A stretch of DNA of 64,000 nt from Halorutilales archaeon Cl-col2-1 (GCA_041891055.1 CP169074.1:64001-128000), one strand, 5' to 3'. Positions 34,760 through 57,993 are shown, counted from the first letter of the stretch. Numbers and translations are program-made. The notes: a model not told the origin generated them from the letters alone.

Positions 34760-36046
34760 TTATCCCACGACGTCGGTCACCGACTCGGCGATCCCGAGTA
34801 GCTTCGCGTCCTCGAAGCTTCCCGCGGTAATCTGGAGACCCACGGGGAGTCCGTCGACGTCGCCCGCTGGGAGGCTTATCGAGGGCACACCCGCTAAGTT
34901 GACGGGAGTAGTGTTTGCGTCGGCGAGGTACATCTGCATCGGGTCGTCGAGTGTCTCGCCTATACGGAAGGGAGTCACGGGCATAGTCGGCGAGGCAACC
35001 ACGTCGGCTTCGTCGAGAGCCTCGTCGAAGTCTCTCTTTACGAGTTCTCGGGCGTTCTGTGCCTTCTTGTAGTACTTTCCGTGGTAGCCCTCGCTCAGGG
35101 CGTAGGTTCCGAGCATTATACGGCGTTTGACCTCCTCTCCGAAACGGCTCCTCGCCTCCGAGAAAGCCTCGTTCCAGCTCTTGCCCTCTGGGTCGTCGGC
35201 TTTTCCGTACCTCACGCCGTCGAAACGCGCGAGGTTACTCGATGCCTCTCCCATGGCTATGACGTAGTAGGCGGCGAGTGCGTGTTCGAGACTCGGGAGG
35301 GAGACATAATGGTACGACGCGCCGGCGTCTTCGAGTTGGTCGAGTGCCGCCTCGAAGACCTCACGGACGCCGTCCTCTGTGCCTTCTCCGATAAGCTCCT
35401 CGGGAACCGCGATACTGAGACCGTCGACGTCTACGGGGTCTTCGACGGCTTCGACGTAACTCCCGTCGGTCGGTGCAGAAGTAGACGTCGAGTCGTTGTC
35501 GTCTTCCCCCGCGATTACGTCGAGGACACGTGCGACCGTCTCTACGTCACGTGCCATCGGACCTATGGTTTCGAGAGAGTTGGCGTAGGCGATCAGACCG
35601 TAACGGGAGACGAGACCGTAAGTGGGCTTGAGACCGACGATTCCACAGAAGGCGGCGGGACACCGTACCGAGCCGCCGGTGTCAGTCCCGAGTGCGGCGT
35701 CGACCTCTCCCGAGGCGACAGCGGCGGCACTTCCTCCCGACGACCCTCCGGGAACGTACTCCTCGTTGACGGGGTTCTTCGTGGAGCCGTAGGCACTCGT
35801 CTCTGTCGTCGTACCCATTCCGAACTCGTCCATGTTGGTCTTTCCGAGTATTCTCGCGCCCTCGTCCTTGAGACGGCTCACAGCCGTGGCGTCGTAGGGC
35901 GGGACGTAGCCTTCGAGAACCTCGGAGCCACACGTCGTCTCGACCCCCTCGGTGGATATGTTGTCCTTGACTCCGATGGTGAGGTCGGAGAGTTTGCCGT
36001 CGCCACCGCCTATCTCACACCGGCTTATGAATGCGTTGTAGCTCAT
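34760..36046 (-). CDS. gatA: Asp/Glu-tRNA amidotransferase subunit A
   Basis: GKTNMDEFGMG, GGSSGGSAAAV, GTDTGGSVRCPA, EVKRRIMLGT. Confidence 0.96.
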   Translation of the reverse strand: MSYNAFISRCEIGGGDGKLSDLTIGVKDNISTEGVETTCGSEVLEGYVPPYDATAVSRLKDEGARILGKTNMDEFGMGTTTETSAYGSTKNPVNEEYVPGGSSGGSAAAVASGEVDAALGTDTGGSVRCPAAFCGIVGLKPTYGLVSRYGLIAYANSLETIGPMARDVETVARVLDVIAGEDDNDSTSTSAPTDGSYVEAVEDPVDVDGLSIAVPEELIGEGTEDGVREVFEAALDQLEDAGASYHYVSLPSLEHALAAYYVIAMGEASSNLARFDGVRYGKADDPEGKSWNEAFSEARSRFGEEVKRRIMLGTYALSEGYHGKYYKKAQNARELVKRDFDEALDEADVVASPTMPVTPFRIGETLDDPMQMYLADANTTPVNLAGVPSISLPAGDVDGLPVGLQITAGSFEDAKLLGIAESVTDVVG

Positions 36047-36048
36047 CT

Positions 36049-36357
36049 TTAGTCTGACTCCGACACCTTAGGTGCCTTTACGTATCCGTCCTCGGTCTCG
36101 GGAGCGTTTTCGAGGACATCTTCCTGTGGGAGCGACGCCTCGACCTCGTCTTCCCTCATGACGTTCTCGAAGTCGTCGGATCTCTCGACGTCGTCGGGAA
36201 TCTCGTCGAGACCCTCGAAGTAGTCGAGTATCTGGTTGAAGTCGTCTACGAAGGGCTCGACCTCGTCTTCGTCGAGATCTATACGTGCGAGGTCGGCGAT
36301 ATGTTCGACGTCGTCACGTCCGAGCTGTGTGTCGGTACCCGTGTCGGTGTCGGTCAT
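36049..36357 (-). CDS. gatC: Amidotransferase subunit C
   Basis: VEHIADLARIDL..NVMREDEV..NAPETEDGYVKAPKV. Confidence 0.92.
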   Translation of the reverse strand: MTDTDTGTDTQLGRDDVEHIADLARIDLDEDEVEPFVDDFNQILDYFEGLDEIPDDVERSDDFENVMREDEVEASLPQEDVLENAPETEDGYVKAPKVSESD

Positions 36358-36413
36358 ACACGACAAGATACTCCGGAGCGCATAAAGAGTTTCTCAAGAC
36401 ATCCGGTTTCGAA

Positions 36414-36860
36414 TCAGCATCTCTCGTCTATGACCGCGTCTATGATCGAGGTAGTAGAGAGTATCTCGTAGTCGCGCTCCTCTCTCTTGCCTACTCTCAC
36501 GACTTCTATCTCGAATCCCCTGTCTTCGAGCTCTTCCTCAAGCTCCTCCTCGGAGTAGTACTGGTCGTAGCCGAGTGTGATTACGTCGGGGTCGAGGTCT
36601 TCGAGCGGGTCGAATATAGAGTCCTCGCTCCCGAGTACGGCGGTATCGACGGGATCGAGAGCCTCGACCATATCACGTCTCTGTCTCCCGGGTACCACGG
36701 GAGGCTCCTTGTGGTCTATCATAGACTCACGCGCAACAATGACGTGAAGCTCGTCGCCTAGCTCCCTCGACTCCGAGAGGTAATGGAGATGTCCCGGGTG
36801 GAGTAGATCGAAGGTACCCGTTGCGAGCACGCGAGTCTGCGTCTCTGCCGTCTCAGTCAT
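36414..36860 (-). CDS. ribL: Archaeal FAD synthase
   Basis: ATGTFDLLHPGH, ITLGYDQ, STTSII. Confidence 0.88.
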   Translation of the reverse strand: MTETAETQTRVLATGTFDLLHPGHLHYLSESRELGDELHVIVARESMIDHKEPPVVPGRQRRDMVEALDPVDTAVLGSEDSIFDPLEDLDPDVITLGYDQYYSEEELEEELEDRGFEIEVVRVGKREERDYEILSTTSIIDAVIDERC

Positions 36861-36864
36861 GTCT

Positions 36865-36968
36865 CAAATCCCTCCCTAATGGAGGGATTTGTGATCATCC
36901 CGAATCTGTGATTCGCGGGTACACGAGAATGAATTCTCGTGATCATCTCGAAAATTATATTATTTTCG
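36865..36968. repeat. REP-like hairpin array (four stem-loops; GTGATCATC repeated at 48-bp spacing)
   Basis: caaatccctcc/ggagggatttg, cgaatc-tgt-gattcg, cacgagaat-ga-attctcgtg, cgaaaat/attttcg. Confidence 0.7.
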
Positions 36969-37460
36969 CTCATCTCTCAACTCTTCTTCGGTGAAGTCAA
37001 AAAAGTCATCGTCTTCGTGTTCGTCGTCTAAATCGACGTCGAGGACGTCTATTTCCCTCTCTATGCCCCTGTCGTCGTAACACTCCCACGAGTTACGCGT
37101 GTAGGGATGTCCGACTATTATGTGGTAGTTGCCCTTCTTAGAGAATGTATCGAGATCCTGCTGACTCGGTATCGTGTTTCCCGAGGGATGTGAGTGGACG
37201 GTTCCAACTGTCGAGGCGTTCGTAGGTGTGGGTATCATCTCATCCCTCATCGTGGCTATCGCCTCACCCGACTCAGTACCCGGAACTACGACGACATCTG
37301 TTATCACGAGTCCGTCGCGGTCTATCCCGAGACGTCTCGCCTGAGTCGTACTCAGGAGACCCAGGAACTCGTTGGGATGGGTGTCACGGCACGTCGCTAG
37401 TATGAACTCAACCGTCTCGTCGGCGATTCCGAGGACGTTTCTGGATCTGAAGAGTCTCAT
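36960..37460 (-). CDS. JAMM/MPN+ metalloprotease (JAMM2-like)
   Basis: HPNEF catalytic Glu; HSHPSGNTIPSQQD. Confidence 0.88.
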   Translation of the reverse strand: MRLFRSRNVLGIADETVEFILATCRDTHPNEFLGLLSTTQARRLGIDRDGLVITDVVVVPGTESGEAIATMRDEMIPTPTNASTVGTVHSHPSGNTIPSQQDLDTFSKKGNYHIIVGHPYTRNSWECYDDRGIEREIDVLDVDLDDEHEDDDFFDFTEEELRDERK

Positions 37461-38140
37461 CTGAGTAGGATGTCTAAAGTCTGTCTGACCTCCGAGACCG
37501 TAAGCTGTCCGGGGGCTGTCGAGTCGTCACCGAGAGACGCATACGTCAGACGCGACCCGTAGAGGGGCGCGACGACGCGCGAGTGAGAGCCTTTCTCCCC
37601 CATCGCTATGGTACAGACATCGCCGTCGTATTCGAGTGTAGCCTCCAAGAGCCGGAGAACGTCGTCTCTCGACTCTGCTTGGACGGCGAGTTTGGGAACC
37701 CCAATACCGGAAGCTTCCGATAATATTTCGCGTATCTCGTCGTCGGAGGGAGTCGAGTCAAAGTCGTGGTACGAGGCGATTACAGTCGCCTCGGCGTCGT
37801 CGGCGGCATCGAGTACCTCGTCGTGAACCTCGTCGGAGGCGTTTAGCTCGACGTCGACTGCATCCGCGTACTCCGCAGCGCGTCTGAGGGTCTCGACACG
37901 TGCGTCCTCGTCGCCCTCGAAGTCCCCGCCCTCCCAACTCGGACGGTTGGTGGCTATAACCGGGAGGTCGACGTCGGAGTCGGTGAGACTCCGGAGACCG
38001 TCGAGTGGATCGCCGTCGGGATCGTATAGATCGAGACGTACCTCAACTGCGTCGGCTCCTCTCTCGTCGGCTTCACGTGCGTTTTCGACGAGGTCGGAAG
38101 TCAGACTTGCGACAACGAGGGGCTGTGAGAAATCTAGCAT
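37457..38140 (-). CDS. aroD: Type I 3-dehydroquinate dehydratase
   Basis: EVRLD, TNR..EGG, DVEL, SYHDF..TP, KLAV, AMG..G..SR, APGQ. Confidence 0.93.
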   Translation of the reverse strand: MLDFSQPLVVASLTSDLVENAREADERGADAVEVRLDLYDPDGDPLDGLRSLTDSDVDLPVIATNRPSWEGGDFEGDEDARVETLRRAAEYADAVDVELNASDEVHDEVLDAADDAEATVIASYHDFDSTPSDDEIREILSEASGIGVPKLAVQAESRDDVLRLLEATLEYDGDVCTIAMGEKGSHSRVVAPLYGSRLTYASLGDDSTAPGQLTVSEVRQTLDILLR

Positions 38141-38162
38141 CAGTTTCGATTGAGTTTGAGTT

Positions 38163-39311
38163 TTATTTTTCGAGAACGCTCTCCTCGACCTGTGTTCCGA
38201 AATGTCTCCCGCCTTCTTCTATGTATATCTTAATCTCGTCTCCCTCGTCTATCTCGGTCACCGACTTCGGACCGTCGGGTGTCACGAGCTTTATCGTCTC
38301 GGCGTTCTGGAGTAACGTCCTGTATCTCTCGCCGTCCTTCTCGACCTCGACGAGCATCATGGGGCGTTTCTCTATCTTCGACCTGCCGACTATCGACTGT
38401 CTCGTCTCGCCGTCCTCGTCGACTATGAGGACGTCGTCTCCGGCTTCGAGTTCGCTGAGGTACTTCGTCTCTCCGCCGGGGACACGTATGTAGGCGTGGA
38501 CGGCTCCAGCGTTGACTCGGAAGGGGCGTGACGCGACGTAGGGCGACTCGGCGGTCTCTGCGTGTACGAGGAAGAGACCGCTTGACATAGACCCGACGAG
38601 CATTCCCTCTCCTGGCTCCATGAGCGTCGCGGTGTCGACACAGACCCTGTCAGCCATCTCGGTGGGCTCGACAGTCGTGACCTCTGCGGTCGTGAGATCG
38701 ATCTCCTCCGATTCCGCCCTGTCCCTCGCCTCTACTGTGTCCTTTATGACTCCGGGATCGTCGGTGTCTAAGAGGACACCGTCGGAGCCTATTTCGAGTG
38801 TCTCGAATGCTGTCTCCGCCTCCTCCGCCGAGTCGACTCCTGCTATAAGCTGGGTCTCGTCTCCTACGTCGGCGATCAGGTTTTCGAGAGGGATTATCTT
38901 CCAGTCCTCTCCTATCGCGACGACGTAGTCGGCGTCCTTAGCCGCCTCCGCCGCGAACCTCTCGTACTCCTTGTTCTGTATCTCGACGTAGCTCGCGACA
39001 TTGCGGTCGTCGATCTGTCTTACTTTCGATAGGTCGCTTGATCCCCCTAAGTCAGGAGGGAACTCGGTCGTTCCGTCGCCCTCGGCGTCCTTTCCGACTA
39101 CGACGACGTCGGCGTCTGTCTCGACCTCCTTCGATGTGTTCGAGTCGACGAAAGCCGCTACCTTCGTCTCTCCGAGTTCGCGCACCTTCTCGACGTCTTC
39201 GTCGTCGACGAGTATGTAGTCGACGCCGCTCTCTATCGCTGCCGTAATCAGGGGAAGTCTGTCGTCCCAGTCGCCCTCGTCCGCCTTGTACCATACCTCT
39301 TTCTCTGTCAT
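38163..39311 (-). CDS. aroB': 3-dehydroquinate synthase II (archaeal AroB')
   Basis: WKIIPLENLIA, DRVCVDT, RPFRVNAGAVHAY, LQNAETI, GRHFG. Confidence 0.94.
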   Translation of the reverse strand: MTEKEVWYKADEGDWDDRLPLITAAIESGVDYILVDDEDVEKVRELGETKVAAFVDSNTSKEVETDADVVVVGKDAEGDGTTEFPPDLGGSSDLSKVRQIDDRNVASYVEIQNKEYERFAAEAAKDADYVVAIGEDWKIIPLENLIADVGDETQLIAGVDSAEEAETAFETLEIGSDGVLLDTDDPGVIKDTVEARDRAESEEIDLTTAEVTTVEPTEMADRVCVDTATLMEPGEGMLVGSMSSGLFLVHAETAESPYVASRPFRVNAGAVHAYIRVPGGETKYLSELEAGDDVLIVDEDGETRQSIVGRSKIEKRPMMLVEVEKDGERYRTLLQNAETIKLVTPDGPKSVTEIDEGDEIKIYIEEGGRHFGTQVEESVLEK

Positions 39312-40096
39312 AGTCCCGACTCCTCCATCGCCTCATCTACCGAGACGCCGCCGTGGACAATCGAGGAGATCGCATTTACCATAGACGGGACGTTGTCCCT
39401 CTGGAAGACGTTTCTTCCCATCGCGACACCTCTCGCTCCGACGTCCATCGCGTCACTTATGTCCTGGAGAACCTCCCTCTCTGTCTCAGCCTTGGGTCCG
39501 CCGGCTATAACGACGGGCGCGGGACAGCCCTCTATGACCTGTCTGTACTCGTCGGGGTCTCCGGTGTAGGCGGTCTTTACGACATCGGCTCCGAGTTCGG
39601 CTCCTATACGTGTCGCATGGGCTATGTTCTCGACGTCGGCGCTGTCGACGTCGTGTCCACGTACGTACATCATAGCTACGAGAGGCATACCGTACTTCTC
39701 ACACTCGTCGGCGACCTTACCGAGATCCTGAAGCTGCTGTGGCTCGGTTTCGCTTCCGACGTTGACCTGTACAGAGACGGCGTCGGCGCCGCGGCGCACA
39801 GCCTCCTCCACGGTTCCTACGAGAACCTTGTTGTTAGGCTCGCCGAGAGAAGTAGCCGCGTTTATGTGGACGATCAGACCCATGTCACGTCCCTTTCCTC
39901 TGTGTCCCTCACTCACTATACCTTTCTGCATCAGAACAGCGTCGCCGCCGCCCTCTGCTATGTCGTTTACCGTGGATTCGAGATCTCTTAGCCCCTCGAC
40001 GGGGCCAATAGAGACGCCGTGATCCATTGGGATAATTACGAAGTTCTTCGACTCCCTGTCACGTATCCTGTCGAGCCGTATCTCCTTACCAATCAT
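39308..40096 (-). CDS. aroA': 2-amino-3,7-dideoxy-D-threo-hept-6-ulosonate synthase (class I aldolase)
   Basis: PMDHGVS.GP, ELGADVVKT.Y, AGGPK, GRNVFQ; in an operon with aroB' and aroD. Confidence 0.92.
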   Translation of the reverse strand: MIGKEIRLDRIRDRESKNFVIIPMDHGVSIGPVEGLRDLESTVNDIAEGGGDAVLMQKGIVSEGHRGKGRDMGLIVHINAATSLGEPNNKVLVGTVEEAVRRGADAVSVQVNVGSETEPQQLQDLGKVADECEKYGMPLVAMMYVRGHDVDSADVENIAHATRIGAELGADVVKTAYTGDPDEYRQVIEGCPAPVVIAGGPKAETEREVLQDISDAMDVGARGVAMGRNVFQRDNVPSMVNAISSIVHGGVSVDEAMEESGL

Positions 40097-40155
40097 GTGA
40101 TAACCTATATCATGCCAGAGTATTTTATGGTTGTCCTTCAGTTCAGAGAAAAAAG

Positions 40156-40395
40156 TCAGTCGCCTAGTGCTTCGGCGACCGTGTCGGCGAGGTCGTCGGC
40201 GTTCTCGAACGGGAAGTCGTCGCTTATTGCCTTGCCTATCTCGACCGCAGAGAACGACTCTCCGTCAACCTCTACAGTTGTCGAGAGACCGTCGGGGAGA
40301 TGCGGGACGAGATCCATTGGCTTCTCTACGGGGTAGCTCGCGTCCTCTACGACCTCGTAGATCCTGTCACGCAGATCCTCAGTATCGGTATCCAT
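40156..40395 (-). CDS. MTH865 family protein
   Basis: ASYPVEKPMDLVPHLPDG..T..DFPFENADDL. Confidence 0.82.
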   Translation of the reverse strand: MDTDTEDLRDRIYEVVEDASYPVEKPMDLVPHLPDGLSTTVEVDGESFSAVEIGKAISDDFPFENADDLADTVAEALGD

Positions 40396-40431
40396 ACAGA
40401 CGCGTTTCGGCGAGTTAACAAACATCTTTTC

Positions 40432-40446
40432 ATAACCAGAGGTTAT
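40432..40446. promoter_or_regulatory. Palindromic putative operator upstream of the thrC2-ubl BRE/TATA
   Basis: ATAACC-aga-GGTTAT; AGTAGAAA-ATATTATAA promoter-like element at 40453-40469. Confidence 0.5.
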
Positions 40447-40492
40447 ATCCTGAGTAGAAAATATTATAACCGTGCATTACATCTCTGGCTGT

Positions 40493-41761
40493 ATGAGCCA
40501 TGTCAAGGGACTAAGATGCAGGGAGTGTGGGGAGGAGTATCCGGCGGTAATGAAGAATACGTGTGAGTCGTGTTTCGGACCTCTCGAAGTTGAGTACGAC
40601 TGGAGTGAGGTAGACGTATCGCGCGAGGAGATAGAGTCAGGTCCGAACTCGATCTGGAGGTACGCCGACCTTCTTCCGATAGACAACGAGGACTCGGTCG
40701 TCGACCTCGGGACAGGATTCAACCATCTCTACGAGGCGGACAACCTAGCCGACGAACTCGGAATAGGAGAGCTCTACATACTCAACGACTCGGTGAACCC
40801 GAGCTTCTCGTTCAAGGACCGTGTCACGGGGGTCGCGGTCGCAAAGGCGATAGAGTTCGGCGTAGACGCGATAGGCTGTGCGTCGACGGGTAACTTAGCT
40901 TCGAGTGTCGCTGCTCACGCCGCGAAGGCGGATCTTCCGGCTTACATCTTCATACCCGACACGATAGAGAAGGGCAAGATAACACAGACACTGACGTATG
41001 ACCCTGAGATAGTTCCTGTTGAGGGCAACTACGACGACGCCAACAGGCTCGCCACCGAGGTCGCCGATGAGAACGGCTGGGGATTCGTCAACATCAACCT
41101 GCGTCCCTACTACACAGAGGGTTCGAACACGATGGCTTACGAGGTCGCCGAACAGCTCGGCTGGGAGGCTCCCGACCACGTCGTCCATCCGATGGCGGCG
41201 GGTGCGTCTCTCCTGTCGGTTCAGAAGGGATACAAGCAGCTTGAGAAGCTCGGTCTGATAGAAGACGGCGATGTCAAGATGAGCGGATCACAGCCCGAGG
41301 GATTCCCGATAGCCGAGGCTGTGAGAAACGACGAGCCCGTGAAGCCGATACAGGAGTACGAGACACTCGCTCACTCTCTCGCGATAGGAAGTCCCGCCGA
41401 CGGATTCTACGCCAAGGACGCGATACTCGAGTCGGGAGGATACGCCGCAAACCCCGACGACGACGCCATCATCGAGGGTATCAAGCTCCTCGCACGCACC
41501 GAGGGAATATTCACAGAGCCCGCGGGAGGTACGACAGTCGCGGGTCTCAGACAGCTCGCCGAGGAGGGACGTATCGACGACGACGAGACCGTAGTCGTCA
41601 ACATAACCGGAAACGGTCTCAAGGCAGAGAGTACTCTCTCGGAGTTCGTGACTGTACCCGAGAGTATATCTCCGAGTATCGGTGAGTTCGAGGACAGGAA
41701 GCAGAGACAGAAGAGCAAGACCAAGAGCAAGAAAGAGGCAGTTCCTGGAGGTGATTACTAA
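40493..41761 (+). CDS. Threonine-synthase-like PLP enzyme, ThrC2/MetM-like clade
   Basis: CRECG..CESCFGPLEV, NPSFSFKDR (PLP Lys), ASTGN, FVNINLRPYY.EGS, SLAIGSPADG, LLARTEGIF. Confidence 0.88.
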   Translation: MSHVKGLRCRECGEEYPAVMKNTCESCFGPLEVEYDWSEVDVSREEIESGPNSIWRYADLLPIDNEDSVVDLGTGFNHLYEADNLADELGIGELYILNDSVNPSFSFKDRVTGVAVAKAIEFGVDAIGCASTGNLASSVAAHAAKADLPAYIFIPDTIEKGKITQTLTYDPEIVPVEGNYDDANRLATEVADENGWGFVNINLRPYYTEGSNTMAYEVAEQLGWEAPDHVVHPMAAGASLLSVQKGYKQLEKLGLIEDGDVKMSGSQPEGFPIAEAVRNDEPVKPIQEYETLAHSLAIGSPADGFYAKDAILESGGYAANPDDDAIIEGIKLLARTEGIFTEPAGGTTVAGLRQLAEEGRIDDDETVVVNITGNGLKAESTLSEFVTVPESISPSIGEFEDRKQRQKSKTKSKKEAVPGGDY

Positions 41762-42036
41762 TGGCAGACGTCAGATTTTCGAGCGCACTCAAGAAGGTGA
41801 CGGGAGAGACGACGACACAGGTCGAGGCAGAGACTGTCGAGGAAGCCATAGACAGACTCACGGAGAGATACGGTGACGACTTCGAGGATCGTCTGATGGA
41901 CGACGGCGAGATACAGAGGTTCGTCAACCTCTATGTCAACGGAGAGGACGTGAGACACGGCGAAGGTCTCGAAACGAGTATCGAGGACGACGACGAGATT
42001 TCGATTCTCCCCGCCGTGAGTGGAGGGTCAACTTAG
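41761..42036 (+). CDS. MoaD/CysO/SAMP-like ubiquitin-like sulfur carrier with masked C-terminus (GG-ST)
   Basis: FVNLYVNGEDVR..LET...DEISILPAVSGGST; TAATG overlap and GGAGGTGA SD at 41747-41754. Confidence 0.9.
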   Translation: MADVRFSSALKKVTGETTTQVEAETVEEAIDRLTERYGDDFEDRLMDDGEIQRFVNLYVNGEDVRHGEGLETSIEDDDEISILPAVSGGST

Positions 42037-42128
42037 CGTAGTACTCGCCATCCATAACGTAGTACACATAACATAACCATAACACGAATACCCGTGTCTT
42101 TAGGGGAGTTCCACGCCTAAGCTATTAC

Positions 42129-42563
42129 ATGCCGAGTCTTCTAGACACACGCGTCGAAAACACCGAGATAGTACAGCCCAACGACACCAACATAGTCGAC
42201 ACCGCACACGGCGGTACCGTCGTGAAATGGATGGACGAGACGGGCGGAATATCGGCTATAAGATTCGCGGGGAACGTCTGTGTCACCGCGGGGATGGAGA
42301 GCGTCGACTTCCACCATCCGATACACAGAGGCGACGCCGCTGTCATACGTTCTTACGTCTACGACGTCGGGACTTCGAGCATAGACGTACGTATCTGTGT
42401 CTACTCGGAGAACCTCAAGACGGGAGAGAGACAGCTAACTACGGAGTCGTACTTCACCTACGTCGCAATAGACGACGACGGAAACCCCGTTGAGGTTCCC
42501 GAACTCGAAGTCGAGACCGAGAAAGAGAAGGAGTTACGTGACGAGGCTCTCGAAGGTGAGTAA
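42129..42563 (+). CDS. Acyl-CoA thioesterase (hotdog fold)
   Basis: QPNDTN..TAHGG.VVKWMDE, VDFHHPI..GD, FTYVAID. Confidence 0.88.
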   Translation: MPSLLDTRVENTEIVQPNDTNIVDTAHGGTVVKWMDETGGISAIRFAGNVCVTAGMESVDFHHPIHRGDAAVIRSYVYDVGTSSIDVRICVYSENLKTGERQLTTESYFTYVAIDDDGNPVEVPELEVETEKEKELRDEALEGE

Positions 42564-42564
42564 T

Positions 42565-43656
42565 ATGAGAACCTCAGAACGCACCGACGCGATAAGCATA
42601 AGCGGTATACGCCGTGTCTTCGAGGCGGCGGACGACGACGCCATAAACCTGGGTCTGGGACAGCCCGACTTCGACACTCCCGAGAACGTCAAGAAGGCGG
42701 CTGTCGAGGCTATCGAGACGGGGAAGGCTAGCTCGTACACCTCGAACAGAGGGATTCCGGAGCTAAGAGAGGCGGTCGCCGACAGCTTCAGCTTCGAGAC
42801 GTCTCCCGACGACGTCATAGTCACCTCGGGGGCGAGCGAGGCACTCCACATAGCCGTCGAGGCTCACGTCAACACAGGAGACGAGGTTCTAATTCCCGAC
42901 CCGGGATTCGTCTCTTACGAGGCTCTCTCGAAGGTCGCAGACGCGCGTCCGAAAGGTGTCGAACTCGCCGACGACCTGCGTCTCGAACCCGAGTCAGTAA
43001 AGGAGGCGATCACCGATGAGACTTCGGCGTTCGTGGTCAACTCCCCCGCGAACCCGACGGGTGCGGTACAGACACGTGACGACATGAGAGCCTTCGCCGA
43101 GATAGCCGACGACTACGGAGTGACACTCATAAGCGACGAGGTCTATGAGCCTTTCGTCTACGAGGGCGAGCACCACTCCCCCGCGGAGTTCGGTGAGAAC
43201 GTCGTCACAGTCAACGCAGCGTCGAAGGCTTACTCGATGACAGGATGGCGTCTCGGATACGTCACTGCGCCCGAGACCGAGAACATGTTACGTGTCCATC
43301 AGTACATACAGGCGTGTGCGAGTGCGCCGTCGCAGTACGCAGCCCTCGAGGCACTCGAAGGTCCTCAGTACGCTGTGAGCGAGATGAAGGACGAGTTCGA
43401 GGCGAGACGTGACCTGATACTCGACGCCTTCGAGGAGATGGGTCTCGACTGTCCGACGCCGAAGGGTGCATTCTACGCCTTCCCGGAGGTTCCCGACGGC
43501 TTCGTCGACGCGTGTATAGAAGAAGGAGTCGTTGTAGTTCCGGGAGATGCATTCGGAGAGGGCGGAGAGGGACACGCCCGCGTCTCTTACGCCAACTCAC
43601 GTGAGAACCTGCGTGAGGCTCTCGATGTGATGGAGTCGGTTCTCGAAGATCTCTGA
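42565..43656 (+). CDS. Class I/II PLP aminotransferase (aspartate aminotransferase-like)
   Basis: LGLGQPDF, NSPANPTG, SDEVY, SKAYSMTGWRLG. Confidence 0.92.
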   Translation: MRTSERTDAISISGIRRVFEAADDDAINLGLGQPDFDTPENVKKAAVEAIETGKASSYTSNRGIPELREAVADSFSFETSPDDVIVTSGASEALHIAVEAHVNTGDEVLIPDPGFVSYEALSKVADARPKGVELADDLRLEPESVKEAITDETSAFVVNSPANPTGAVQTRDDMRAFAEIADDYGVTLISDEVYEPFVYEGEHHSPAEFGENVVTVNAASKAYSMTGWRLGYVTAPETENMLRVHQYIQACASAPSQYAALEALEGPQYAVSEMKDEFEARRDLILDAFEEMGLDCPTPKGAFYAFPEVPDGFVDACIEEGVVVVPGDAFGEGGEGHARVSYANSRENLREALDVMESVLEDL

Positions 43657-43664
43657 GAGAGTTG

Positions 43665-44177
43665 TCAGTCGGGGTAGTCGGTCTGGTTGACCTGTTTTAT
43701 CCTGTCCACTCCATCGACCTCGTCTATGACGTCTTCGACCGGGTCGGGAACGAGGTCTCTCCAGTCGCCTCCCTCGATCATCCTCTTACGTATCTCCCTC
43801 CCCGAGTATCTGCTTCTGTCGAAGAGAGGATTCTTCCTGACCTCCTTTCCGTCCTCCTCGAAGAGACGTATCACGAGAGGATTGTTCGAGTAGATGACGT
43901 CGAACTCGGGTGCCATCGACTCTATGTGTGAGACCCAGAGTGAGTTACGGTTGATGTCCTCTATCGGAATTACGTAGGTCGTCGCGTCCAAGTCGTTGAC
44001 GCTCTTCCTCACCATGCTGACACGTTCGCCCGCCGTAAACGGGTTCTTCACTGTGTGGGACGCCTGTGCGGTTCCTATCGCTATGACTATCTCGGGGACG
44101 TCTTCGGCAACCTCTTCGAGAACCTTGTAATGCCCCAGATGGAAGGGCTGGAACCTCCCGACGTAGAATCCGCGCAT
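43665..44177 (-). CDS. nadM: Nicotinamide-nucleotide adenylyltransferase
   Basis: GRFQPFHLGH, SHT..NPFTAGER, SNNPLV, SGREIR. Confidence 0.94.
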   Translation of the reverse strand: MRGFYVGRFQPFHLGHYKVLEEVAEDVPEIVIAIGTAQASHTVKNPFTAGERVSMVRKSVNDLDATTYVIPIEDINRNSLWVSHIESMAPEFDVIYSNNPLVIRLFEEDGKEVRKNPLFDRSRYSGREIRKRMIEGGDWRDLVPDPVEDVIDEVDGVDRIKQVNQTDYPD

Positions 44178-56609: not shown

Positions 56610-57185
56610 ATGGAGATCACTAATCTCACACGAGACTCAGAAGCCTTCACCTCGAACGTCTTCTTAGTCGAGGGCGACACGAACGTCTTGGTCGATGTCG
56701 GTACCGTCCCCGGTATAATAGACGAAGTACGTGAAGCCGGGGGTATCGACGCAGTAGTTCTGACCCACTCACACCGCGACCACGTCGAACTCCTCCCGCG
56801 CGTCAAGCAAGAGTTCGACGTCGAGGTCTGGGGCTACGACGGTTCGTTCGAGGGAACTGACCACGAGATCGACGACGGCGACACCGTCGAGATAGGCGAC
56901 GAGACATTCGAGGTTCTCTTCACTCCGGGTCACAAGACCGACCACGTCTGTCTCGTAGGTGAGACTGTCGTCTTCGCGGGCGACCTGATCTTCGACGGCG
57001 GCGCGTTCGGCAGGACGGACTTAGAGGAGGGGAACCGTGAGTCACTCATCGAGAGCATACAGAGGCTTCTCGAAGAGGTAGAGGACAAAGATGTGGAAGT
57101 CATCTACACGGGGCACGGCTCGGCGATACGCGGCGACGTCGAGGGCGCGGTACGTAGGTCTCTCGAAAACGCGCGTCAGCTTTAG
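56610..57185 (+). CDS. MBL-fold metallo-hydrolase (glyoxalase II-like)
   Basis: LTHSHRDH, TPGH..DH, FAGD, GRTDL, YTGHG. Confidence 0.88.
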   Translation: MEITNLTRDSEAFTSNVFLVEGDTNVLVDVGTVPGIIDEVREAGGIDAVVLTHSHRDHVELLPRVKQEFDVEVWGYDGSFEGTDHEIDDGDTVEIGDETFEVLFTPGHKTDHVCLVGETVVFAGDLIFDGGAFGRTDLEEGNRESLIESIQRLLEEVEDKDVEVIYTGHGSAIRGDVEGAVRRSLENARQL

Positions 57186-57448
57186 CCGCCGCTCGCTGCG
57201 GGAATTATACGTATCTCGTCGTCTTCTTCTAGGCTGGTTTCGACGCCAGCGAGGTTCCTTATGTCCTCACCGTTGACGTAGACGTTTATGTACTCCTTGA
57301 CCTCGCCGTCGTCCATGACCTGGTCTTGTATCTCGGAACCGTGCTCTTCGGTGTAGGCGTCTATCGCCTCCTTTACTGTCGTCGCGTTTACCTCGACCTT
57401 CTTCGATCCCTCGTTCGTGAGAACCGCTGGCACGTTTATTACTGGCAT
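57182..57448 (-). CDS. SAMP/CysO-like ubiquitin-like protein with free C-terminal GG
   Basis: YINVYVNGEDIR..VETSL...DEIRIIPAASGG-stop. Confidence 0.9.
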   Translation of the reverse strand: MPVINVPAVLTNEGSKKVEVNATTVKEAIDAYTEEHGSEIQDQVMDDGEVKEYINVYVNGEDIRNLAGVETSLEEDDEIRIIPAASGG

Positions 57449-57479: not shown

Positions 57480-57917
57480 CTAATCGGTACTACTCTCCCT
57501 AACCTCACTGTCGACCTCTATCTCCTCCCTCTCGAACTCGTCTCCCGTCCAGATCCAAGAGCCTACCTTGGGTTCGTCGTCACCGAGTGAGACTATGACA
57601 TACGAGTGCCCCGTCCACGTTGCCCTCTCGGCGTCAGTCTCACTCGTCCTGAATGGACCCTCGGGATGTGAGTGGTAGAATCCGACTACGTCGAGACCCT
57701 CGTCCTCTATAGCCTCGACTATCTCGAACTGTTCCTGAGGATCTATGAGGTAGTTCGTCTCGGGGGTCTCGCTGACGTTCTCGCAGTCGTAGATCTTCTC
57801 GACTGTCGCCTCTTTTTCACCCCTCTCACCCGCGAGCACGCCACAGATCTCGTAGGGCTTGCCATCCTTCGCGTGGTCTATTATCTCGTCATAGTCGTCG
57901 ACGTCGAACTCTATCAT
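57480..57917 (-). CDS. JAMM1/Mec-like desampylase (M67 metalloprotease)
   Basis: PYEICGVLAG, YLIDPQEQ, GFYHSHP....SETD. Confidence 0.9.
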   Translation of the reverse strand: MIEFDVDDYDEIIDHAKDGKPYEICGVLAGERGEKEATVEKIYDCENVSETPETNYLIDPQEQFEIVEAIEDEGLDVVGFYHSHPEGPFRTSETDAERATWTGHSYVIVSLGDDEPKVGSWIWTGDEFEREEIEVDSEVRESSTD

Positions 57918-57993
57918 CACTCCGTGGTACGCCGCCTCGCGCCTAATATATTCCGGCACGTCTCCCGGCGTCCCATCAGTTTTAAGTCTACGA

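Follow-up and report, generated by a model that had tools for sequence, protein, structure and literature searches.

The capped carrier gene and its ThrC-like partner

The window analysed here is a stretch of 64,000 nucleotides from the Halorutilales archaeon Cl-col2-1 (GCA_041891055.1, CP169074.1:64001-128000), with positions counted from its first base, and it holds at 41761..42036 on the plus strand a gene for a ubiquitin-like protein (Ubl) of 91 amino acids with the ThiS/MoaD fold of sulfur carriers. The gene was delimited from the list of open reading frames (ORFs) and by two profiles, Pfam ThiS (PF02597), which it matches over residues 5-89 with 57.7 bits against a cut-off of 22.5, and the NCBIfam SAMP1 equivalog NF041918, with 73.5 bits against a cut-off of 60. 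The reactive C-terminal diglycine, Gly88-Gly89 (GGA GGG, 42022..42027, plus strand), is followed on the same strand by Ser90-Thr91 (TCA ACT) and a TAG stop at 42028..42036, the whole of 42022-42036 reading GGA GGG TCA ACT TAG and the translation finishing ...ILPAVSGGST. An earlier note, made from the DNA alone, had described a diglycine masked by a two-residue Ser-Thr extension, and this is what the codons and the ORF hold. Both profile alignments stop at residue 89, the second glycine, and because the family profiles finish there, Ser-Thr is a true extension past the family C-terminus. All 28 aligned relatives have G88 and G89, and the LPAVSGG motif that includes them is invariant or nearly so in archaea as well as bacteria, being present in 119 of 120 listed database relatives, the last of which is truncated.

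The nearest solved chains are 4n6e_B of the ThiS/MoaD family (E 4e-14) and Mycobacterium tuberculosis CysO, 3dwg_C (E 4e-13), and the Haloferax SAMP1 chains match with an E of only about 1e-4. The exposed diglycine of solved Haloferax volcanii SAMP1 is absent in the Ubl; the alignment with its chain 3po0_A runs to the end of that chain, residue 89. The neighbour of the Ubl gene is moreover a ThrC-like gene and not MoaE. This gene, at 40472..41761 on the plus strand, encodes a pyridoxal phosphate (PLP) enzyme (PALP 215.5 bits; TIGR00260 thrC 284.6 bits) that we propose to be a homocysteine synthase of the MetM type. Counted from the GTG at 40472 it has 429 amino acids, but the orthologs (MT.D/EC.RCRECG) start some 7 residues further in, so that an ATG near 40493 is probably the real start, and the N-terminus is a Cys-rich, zinc-ribbon-like segment. 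The TAA stop of the ThrC-like gene and the ATG of the Ubl share one base in TAATG, and the Ubl is predicted to be translationally coupled to the ThrC paralog. A second ThrC elsewhere in the genome (G000:C1:359072-360181), 41% identical to the partner, outscores it on TIGR00260 with 334.2 bits, and there is also a third, weaker ThrC-like gene. Such a second, better-scoring ThrC was found in 4 of 5 other genomes checked. The CysK/M-like gene of the genome sits elsewhere (L139), the Ubl partner matching the thrC models and not the CysM type.

The overlapping order of ThrC-like gene and Ubl is kept in orthologs from the other haloarchaeal family (L009 and L010), and it reaches much further. When species genomes were scanned with aligned Ubl relatives (A1), 80 loci came up, which span Halobacteria, Methanoperedens, Methanosarcinales, Bathyarchaeia, Brockarchaeota and Nitrososphaerales as well as Chloroflexota, Acidobacteriota, Verrucomicrobiota and Actinomycetota. 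A ThrC-like gene lies on the same strand within 100 bp upstream of the Ubl in 54 of the 80 loci and 101-600 bp upstream in 20, so that the pair within 600 bp recurs in 74/80 loci from archaea and bacteria; it lies farther upstream in 2 and was not found upstream in 4, one of these being without upstream sequence. The 75 Ubl-linked ThrC-like enzymes, including the one in the window, form one clade apart from 8 paralogs with a Shimodaira-Hasegawa-like approximate likelihood ratio (SH-aLRT) support of 99, in a quick maximum-likelihood tree with a short search and no bootstraps, where the paralogs come from 4 genomes (that of the window and three others) and the groups are defined by Ubl linkage, i.e. 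by the feature under test. The haloarchaeal set is in this tree sister to the set from Methanosarcinales and Methanoperedens.

Some loci have other neighbours or forms. In Methanolobus profundi (L075) the Ubl relative adjoins an E1 gene and has no ThrC-like gene upstream, and a search of the whole genome with a ThrC-like query gave nothing at E <= 1e-15. A Bathyarchaeota metagenome-assembled genome (MAG) holds an in-frame ThiS-PALP fusion right after the diglycine (L109:3989-5203), with an N-terminus like cysteine synthase, and a Chloroflexi MAG a corresponding fusion of ThiS to CMD, carboxymuconolactone decarboxylase (L113:3995-4756); both stand downstream of a ThrC-like gene. The hotdog thioesterase that follows the Ubl at 42129-42563 was considered as a further part of the system and rejected, as it is not beside the pair in L009 or L010.

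In the bacteria the pair is found in a methionine context. Of 20 bacterial loci scanned, 10 have a S-adenosylmethionine (SAM) riboswitch (RF00162, 63-85 bits, gathering threshold 44.4) at 82-171 nt upstream of the ThrC-like gene, and 4 of the remaining 10 offer less than 340 bases of upstream sequence. Between enzyme and Ubl all 10 Chloroflexota loci tested have an ORF of about 80 amino acids with a NIL domain, which is known from methionine transporters, and the operon order is then SAM riboswitch, ThrC-like gene, NIL-domain ORF and Ubl (L099, L102, L104, L105, L107, L122, L123, L125, L127 and L129). The genome of Cl-col2-1 itself encodes ThrB (183 bits, cut-off 168), MetE, two JAMM proteases and, outside the window at G000:C1:209690-210397, a single E1 that serves all four of its ThiS-family proteins; the JAMMs, the E1 and ThrB are all unlinked to the pair. 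The nearest structures, of the CysO type, and the coupling to ThrC point to a metabolic, MetO-like carrier. We hypothesize, on homology and gene context, that the Ubl is a carrier of the CysO/MetO type which works together with the upstream ThrC paralog, and that the two are the archaeal counterpart of the MetM/MetO thiocarboxylate pathway of Streptomyces, an explanation that we hold to be fairly probable.

The tail and the JAMM proteases

The last codons of the gene, which the earlier note wanted to see confirmed by reads, are sound. Contigs from 4 runs (3 studies) span 42019-42036 with zero indels, and the substitutions near the tail, 42015 C>A, 42021 T>C and 42030 A>G, are all three synonymous, the codons being read by eye. 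A genome of the same genus (G001) has ...GGA GGG TCG ACT TAG, an identical ST tail with a synonymous TCG, and orthologs in the other haloarchaeal family are tailed as well. That the tail is an artefact of one assembly, where the sequence could be in error or a stop codon only just lost, was rejected on the synonymous-only changes in these contigs, the tail in G001 and the tails in the other family; no point was found in its favour, and we regard the chance of it as negligible. Just past the Ubl stop, at 42066-42073, there are short intergenic ACATAAC-like repeats with small strain indels in contigs of three runs.

Among the 120 relatives listed of 182 database matches, 36 are tailed, 83 end in a free GG and 1 is truncated. 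The 46 closest of those listed, 58-100% identical, acidic and haloarchaeal-like, comprise 33 tailed, 12 free-GG and 1 truncated sequence, and the other 74 listed, mostly Methanoperedens-like, 3 tailed and 71 with free GG. In the 46 closest the tails are 1-5 residues long, with R (10), C (4) and S (3) and further ST, SRR, RGR, SWELE, SQN, A, V, Q, L and others. Orthologs (E <= 1e-28) were found in 5 of 401 sampled Halobacteria genomes, from two families, and all five are tailed (ST, ST, S, R and SR) with none ending in free GG. A tail or fusion is present in 23 of the 74 complete pairs on the enzyme tree, with 0/27 in Methanomicrobia, 7/8 in the haloarchaeal clade and 13/20 in Chloroflexota, and this distribution requires no fewer than 12 switches between the states. 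Tails after GG occur often, but neither their length nor their sequence is conserved. The orthologs thus do not all end at GG, which the earlier note had named as an outcome that would refute it, but neither do they keep the tail as a fixed trait.

A masked carrier would have to be uncapped before its diglycine could be used, and removal of the tail by a JAMM seems the most plausible way to do it. The window encodes two such proteins, both on the minus strand. The JAMM/MPN+ metalloprotease at 57480..57959 (Prok-JAB 75.7 bits; NF041370 161.5 bits, cut-off 130) is of the HvJAMM1 desampylase type and its translation bears the motif HSHPEGPFRTSETD, and the JAMM at 36960..37460 (Prok-JAB 47.1 bits), HvJAMM2-type by elimination and a core haloarchaeal gene, bears HSHPSGNTIPSQQD. 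Both translations have the HxHx7Sx2D motif, and the two are the only matches over cut-off to PF14464 (Prok-JAB) in the 2.06-Mb genome. The earlier note had made something of their lying in one window with the Ubl; both genes are real by profile and motif, but the co-location is mostly coincidence. The JAMM at 36960-37460 has an ortholog in 41/41 relatives, with or without this Ubl, and its occurrence is therefore no discriminator; only within the genus does it lie close to the pair. According to PMC4895103, cleavage of SAMP conjugates, in vitro as well as in vivo, was seen with HvJAMM1 alone, and recombinant HvJAMM2 is non-functional. The desampylase at 57480-57959 is probably the candidate to prefer for tail removal as well as adduct release, and the JAMM at 36960-37460 a less likely processing enzyme.

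Across the 80 loci, all 22 tailed or fused carriers are in genomes with a Prok-JAB match over cut-off, and so are 47 of the 56 free-GG carriers, the remaining 9 being in genomes without one. The hypergeometric chance that none of 22 tailed genomes would be without a JAMM is 0.04, for genomes that are related and many of which are incomplete MAGs, and the co-occurrence of tail and JAMM is weak evidence. The count excludes a truncated locus (L116) and also L119, a case of its own in that the tail there, SGG, finishes in GG once more, a link to ThrC is absent and its genome gave no JAMM.

The proposed cycle and its alternatives

Homology and context, from which every step is inferred, suggest the following cycle. 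A JAMM, most likely the HvJAMM1-type desampylase, would cut Ser-Thr off after Gly89, after which the single E1 would adenylate Gly89 and the thiocarboxylate would be formed. The ThrC-like enzyme would then join the carrier thiocarboxylate to O-phosphohomoserine from ThrB, and the same JAMM would hydrolyse the carrier-homocysteine adduct, which would give homocysteine for MetE and regenerate the carrier with its free GG. In pathways of the CysO/HcyS type the PLP enzyme leaves an amino acid on the carrier C-terminus and a JAMM hydrolyses that bond at each turnover. A residue encoded after GG would resemble the product adduct, so that the same protease would be expected to remove it. Because the JAMM must cut bonds between carrier-GG and amino acid every turnover, an encoded residue or two would cost little, and tails could therefore appear, change and vanish freely. 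On this reading the tail would be a tolerated cap and not a tuned switch, a view in keeping with how labile the tails are and how often they consist of a single residue, Cys among them, and lability of this kind fits permissive JAMM trimming rather than a dedicated regulatory switch.

A number of observations weigh against a carrier that works in this way. NCBIfam labels the Ubl a SAMP1 equivalog, so an extra role in protein conjugation is possible. The cycle needs a JAMM for product release, though the 9 free-GG genomes mentioned above have no match to one; these are MAGs from which genes may be missing, or a different hydrolase may do the work. In a strict scan the JAMM motif turned up at 1 of 84 loci within about 4 kb from the pair, and for that reason the link to the protease rests on presence in the genome and not on an operon. 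An Rfam scan of the window from 36000 to 44000, with E up to 1, gave no riboswitch or other match. Finally, a MetY-type O-acetylhomoserine sulfhydrylase (TIGR01326, 585 bits) is encoded in the genome, and because of this enzyme the thiocarboxylate route is not needed to explain methionine prototrophy and would be a second route.

The earlier note had seen in the Ubl an archaeal precursor whose trimming by JAMM gives a post-translational switch. One part of this stands, as the GG is masked and the tailed or fused relatives are all in genomes with a JAMM, but the regulatory part is not supported. The corresponding alternative is a SAMP-type modifier that is made as an inactive precursor, with regulated JAMM trimming as the switch that controls conjugation. 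The NF041918 score above cut-off would agree with it, as would the one E1 for all four ThiS-family proteins, the tail in 5/5 orthologs from Halobacteria genomes and the fact that haloarchaeal SAMPs, according to PMC6043591, act in sulfur transfer as well as protein conjugation. A tuned switch, however, predicts conservation of the tail, and the relatives do not show it: neither sequence nor length is conserved, the tail is missing in 12/46 of the closest relatives listed and it has been gained or lost at least 12 times. Bacteria also conserve the pair with the ThrC paralog, there preceded by SAM riboswitches, CysO and not SAMP1 is the closest among solved chains, and neither JAMM is specifically tied to the Ubl gene, all of which leaves the switch unlikely in our judgement. 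It is also conceivable that sharing of the E1 (UbaA-type) gives the cap a function in a MetO-like carrier, as a licensing device that would keep the carrier out of the pool for E1 and conjugation until a JAMM uncaps it; this would account for the caps in 7/8 haloarchaeal rows vs 0/27 in Methanomicrobia, but we give it only a slim chance. The further idea that such a cap would keep apart, or coordinate, the flux of methionine sulfur and the tagging of proteins is given the same slim chance.

A quite different explanation would be that the tail is kept and the C-terminus is not used at all, the Ubl acting without a covalent bond, for instance as a subunit that regulates or scaffolds the ThrC-like enzyme. 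This would agree with the 83/84 loci that have no JAMM beside the pair and with the free-GG genomes that lack a JAMM match. On the other hand, the near-invariance of GG and LPAVSGG is hard to explain unless the C-terminus is used chemically, and the in-frame fusions after GG in L109 and L113 would bury the diglycine unless they are cleaved, and we find a purely non-covalent role improbable.

Known systems and neighbouring genes

The closest parallel to the proposed MetO-like carrier is the route in Streptomyces albulus, reported by Hasebe et al. 2024 (AEM 90:e01247-24) and taken here from the accounts in the GapMind 2026 preprint and PMC12172450. Appendix 4 of the preprint gives the route as the carrier MetO, the JAMM hydrolase Mec, which MetO needs in order to mature, the ligase MoeZ and MetM, a homolog of threonine synthase that forms homocysteine from O-phosphohomoserine and is frequently mislabelled as threonine synthase. 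PMC12172450 relates that metM of S. albulus is preceded by a SAM riboswitch, and that a metO-like gene adjoins cyanobacterial thrC. The likeness, drawn from these published descriptions and from gene context, lies in a ThiS/MoaD-type carrier gene beside a ThrC homolog that is easily taken for threonine synthase, and in the reported need for maturation by a JAMM and dependence on an E1 (MoeZ). A SAM riboswitch occurs in S. albulus and in bacterial members of the Ubl-linked clade. In the present genome too the carrier stands beside a ThrC homolog distinct from the housekeeping ThrC, with ThrB, an E1 and JAMMs encoded. The pair described here differs in being archaeal and halophilic, in having no riboswitch within 36000-44000 of the window and in that JAMM and E1 are unlinked; the E1 match is without an added domain, and no scan was aimed at a rhodanese domain.

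With CysO-CysM-Mec of M. tuberculosis (3dwg) the Ubl shares the ...ILPAV(A/S)GG end of CysO, at the E of 4e-13 given above, and the logic of a carrier thiocarboxylate, a PLP enzyme and a JAMM; a gene cluster of these three kinds is listed in row 4d of Table 1 in PMC1779556. The differences are that the partner here is ThrC-like and not like cysteine synthase, and that CysO in 3dwg ends at GG. Encoded residues after GG are reportedly removed by a JAMM in Wolinella succinogenes (HcyS/HcyD/HcyF/MetY) and in Pseudomonas (QbsE/QbsD), and the Wolinella JAMM is said also to free homocysteine from the carrier adduct. These systems are bacterial, and the PLP enzyme of Wolinella is according to PMC8191291 MetY, acting on O-acetylhomoserine, and not a ThrC paralog.

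SAMP1 and HvJAMM1 of H. volcanii resemble the present system in the shared fold and NCBIfam model and in that the window encodes a desampylase of the HvJAMM1 type, but the SAMP1 chains of known structure stop at GG and are only remotely similar (E about 1e-4), and the partners of SAMP1 are MoaE and protein targets rather than a ThrC paralog. In Caldiarchaeum subterraneum SAMP precursors are cleaved by CsJAMM, as reported in PMC6043591, and this is the likeness that matters most for the tail: archaeal Ubls of the ThiS/MoaD type that arise as precursors and have a JAMM of their own to cut them. Caldiarchaeum is of another lineage with another genomic context, and the part of its description used here mentions no ThrC-like partner.

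A JAMM-trimmed archaeal pro-Ubl is thus, going by the account of CsJAMM in PMC6043591, already described in kind, and so, by the accounts of MetO and Mec, are JAMM-trimmed capped carriers in bacteria. No published description of an archaeal pair of the MetM/MetO type was found in a literature search, which did not include the supplements of GapMind 2026, and a term search of Iyer et al. 2006 (PMC1779556) returned neither 'threonine synthase' nor 'ThrC'. We see the result as an annotation correction with a comparative observation on the lability of the tail, a modest extension and not a new class of mechanism. If it is true, genes now called 'threonine synthase' and 'SAMP1/MoaD' would have to be renamed in a few haloarchaeal lineages with small genomes, and likewise in Methanoperedens, Methanosarcinales, Bathyarchaeia, Chloroflexota and others. 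The route that makes homocysteine from O-phosphohomoserine with a thiocarboxylate, known from Streptomyces since 2024, would then reach into Archaea, and the drift of the capped diglycine would have an explanation in JAMM cutting at each turnover, which makes an encoded tail nearly free of cost.

The paralogous Ubl of the window, at 57182..57448 on the minus strand (88 amino acids, SAMP1 60.4 bits, 53% identical to the tailed Ubl), ends in a free GG, as the earlier note had it, the translation finishing ...IIPAASGG. The desampylase gene stands immediately upstream of it. Two other haloarchaea (L017 and L022) have orthologs of this paralog that end in AASGG-R and AASGG-QSK and are clustered with a JAMM of the desampylase type (49% identical) and an E1. 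The JAMM at 36960-37460 starts on the stop of aroD (ATGA overlap, 37457-37460) in the region 36414-38140 on the minus strand and is followed by a gene taken as FAD synthase RibL, the names RibL and aroD being read from the translations. Adjacency of this JAMM to RibL was seen in 6/6 haloarchaeal loci (L157-L162) and adjacency to aroD within the genus only. Two Halorutilus-like, pair-bearing genomes (G011 and G027) have an extra, distant paralog of the same JAMM, 36-37% identical, which the genome of the window is without.

Masked diglycines occur also in other SAMP-like genes of haloarchaea, in 7 of 26 non-orthologous matches (loci L014, L019, L031, L032 and L034). Canonical FPPVSGG types among them carry the tails SVGR, NAD and SGQR, and two PPVAGG types extend into a longer C-terminal domain.

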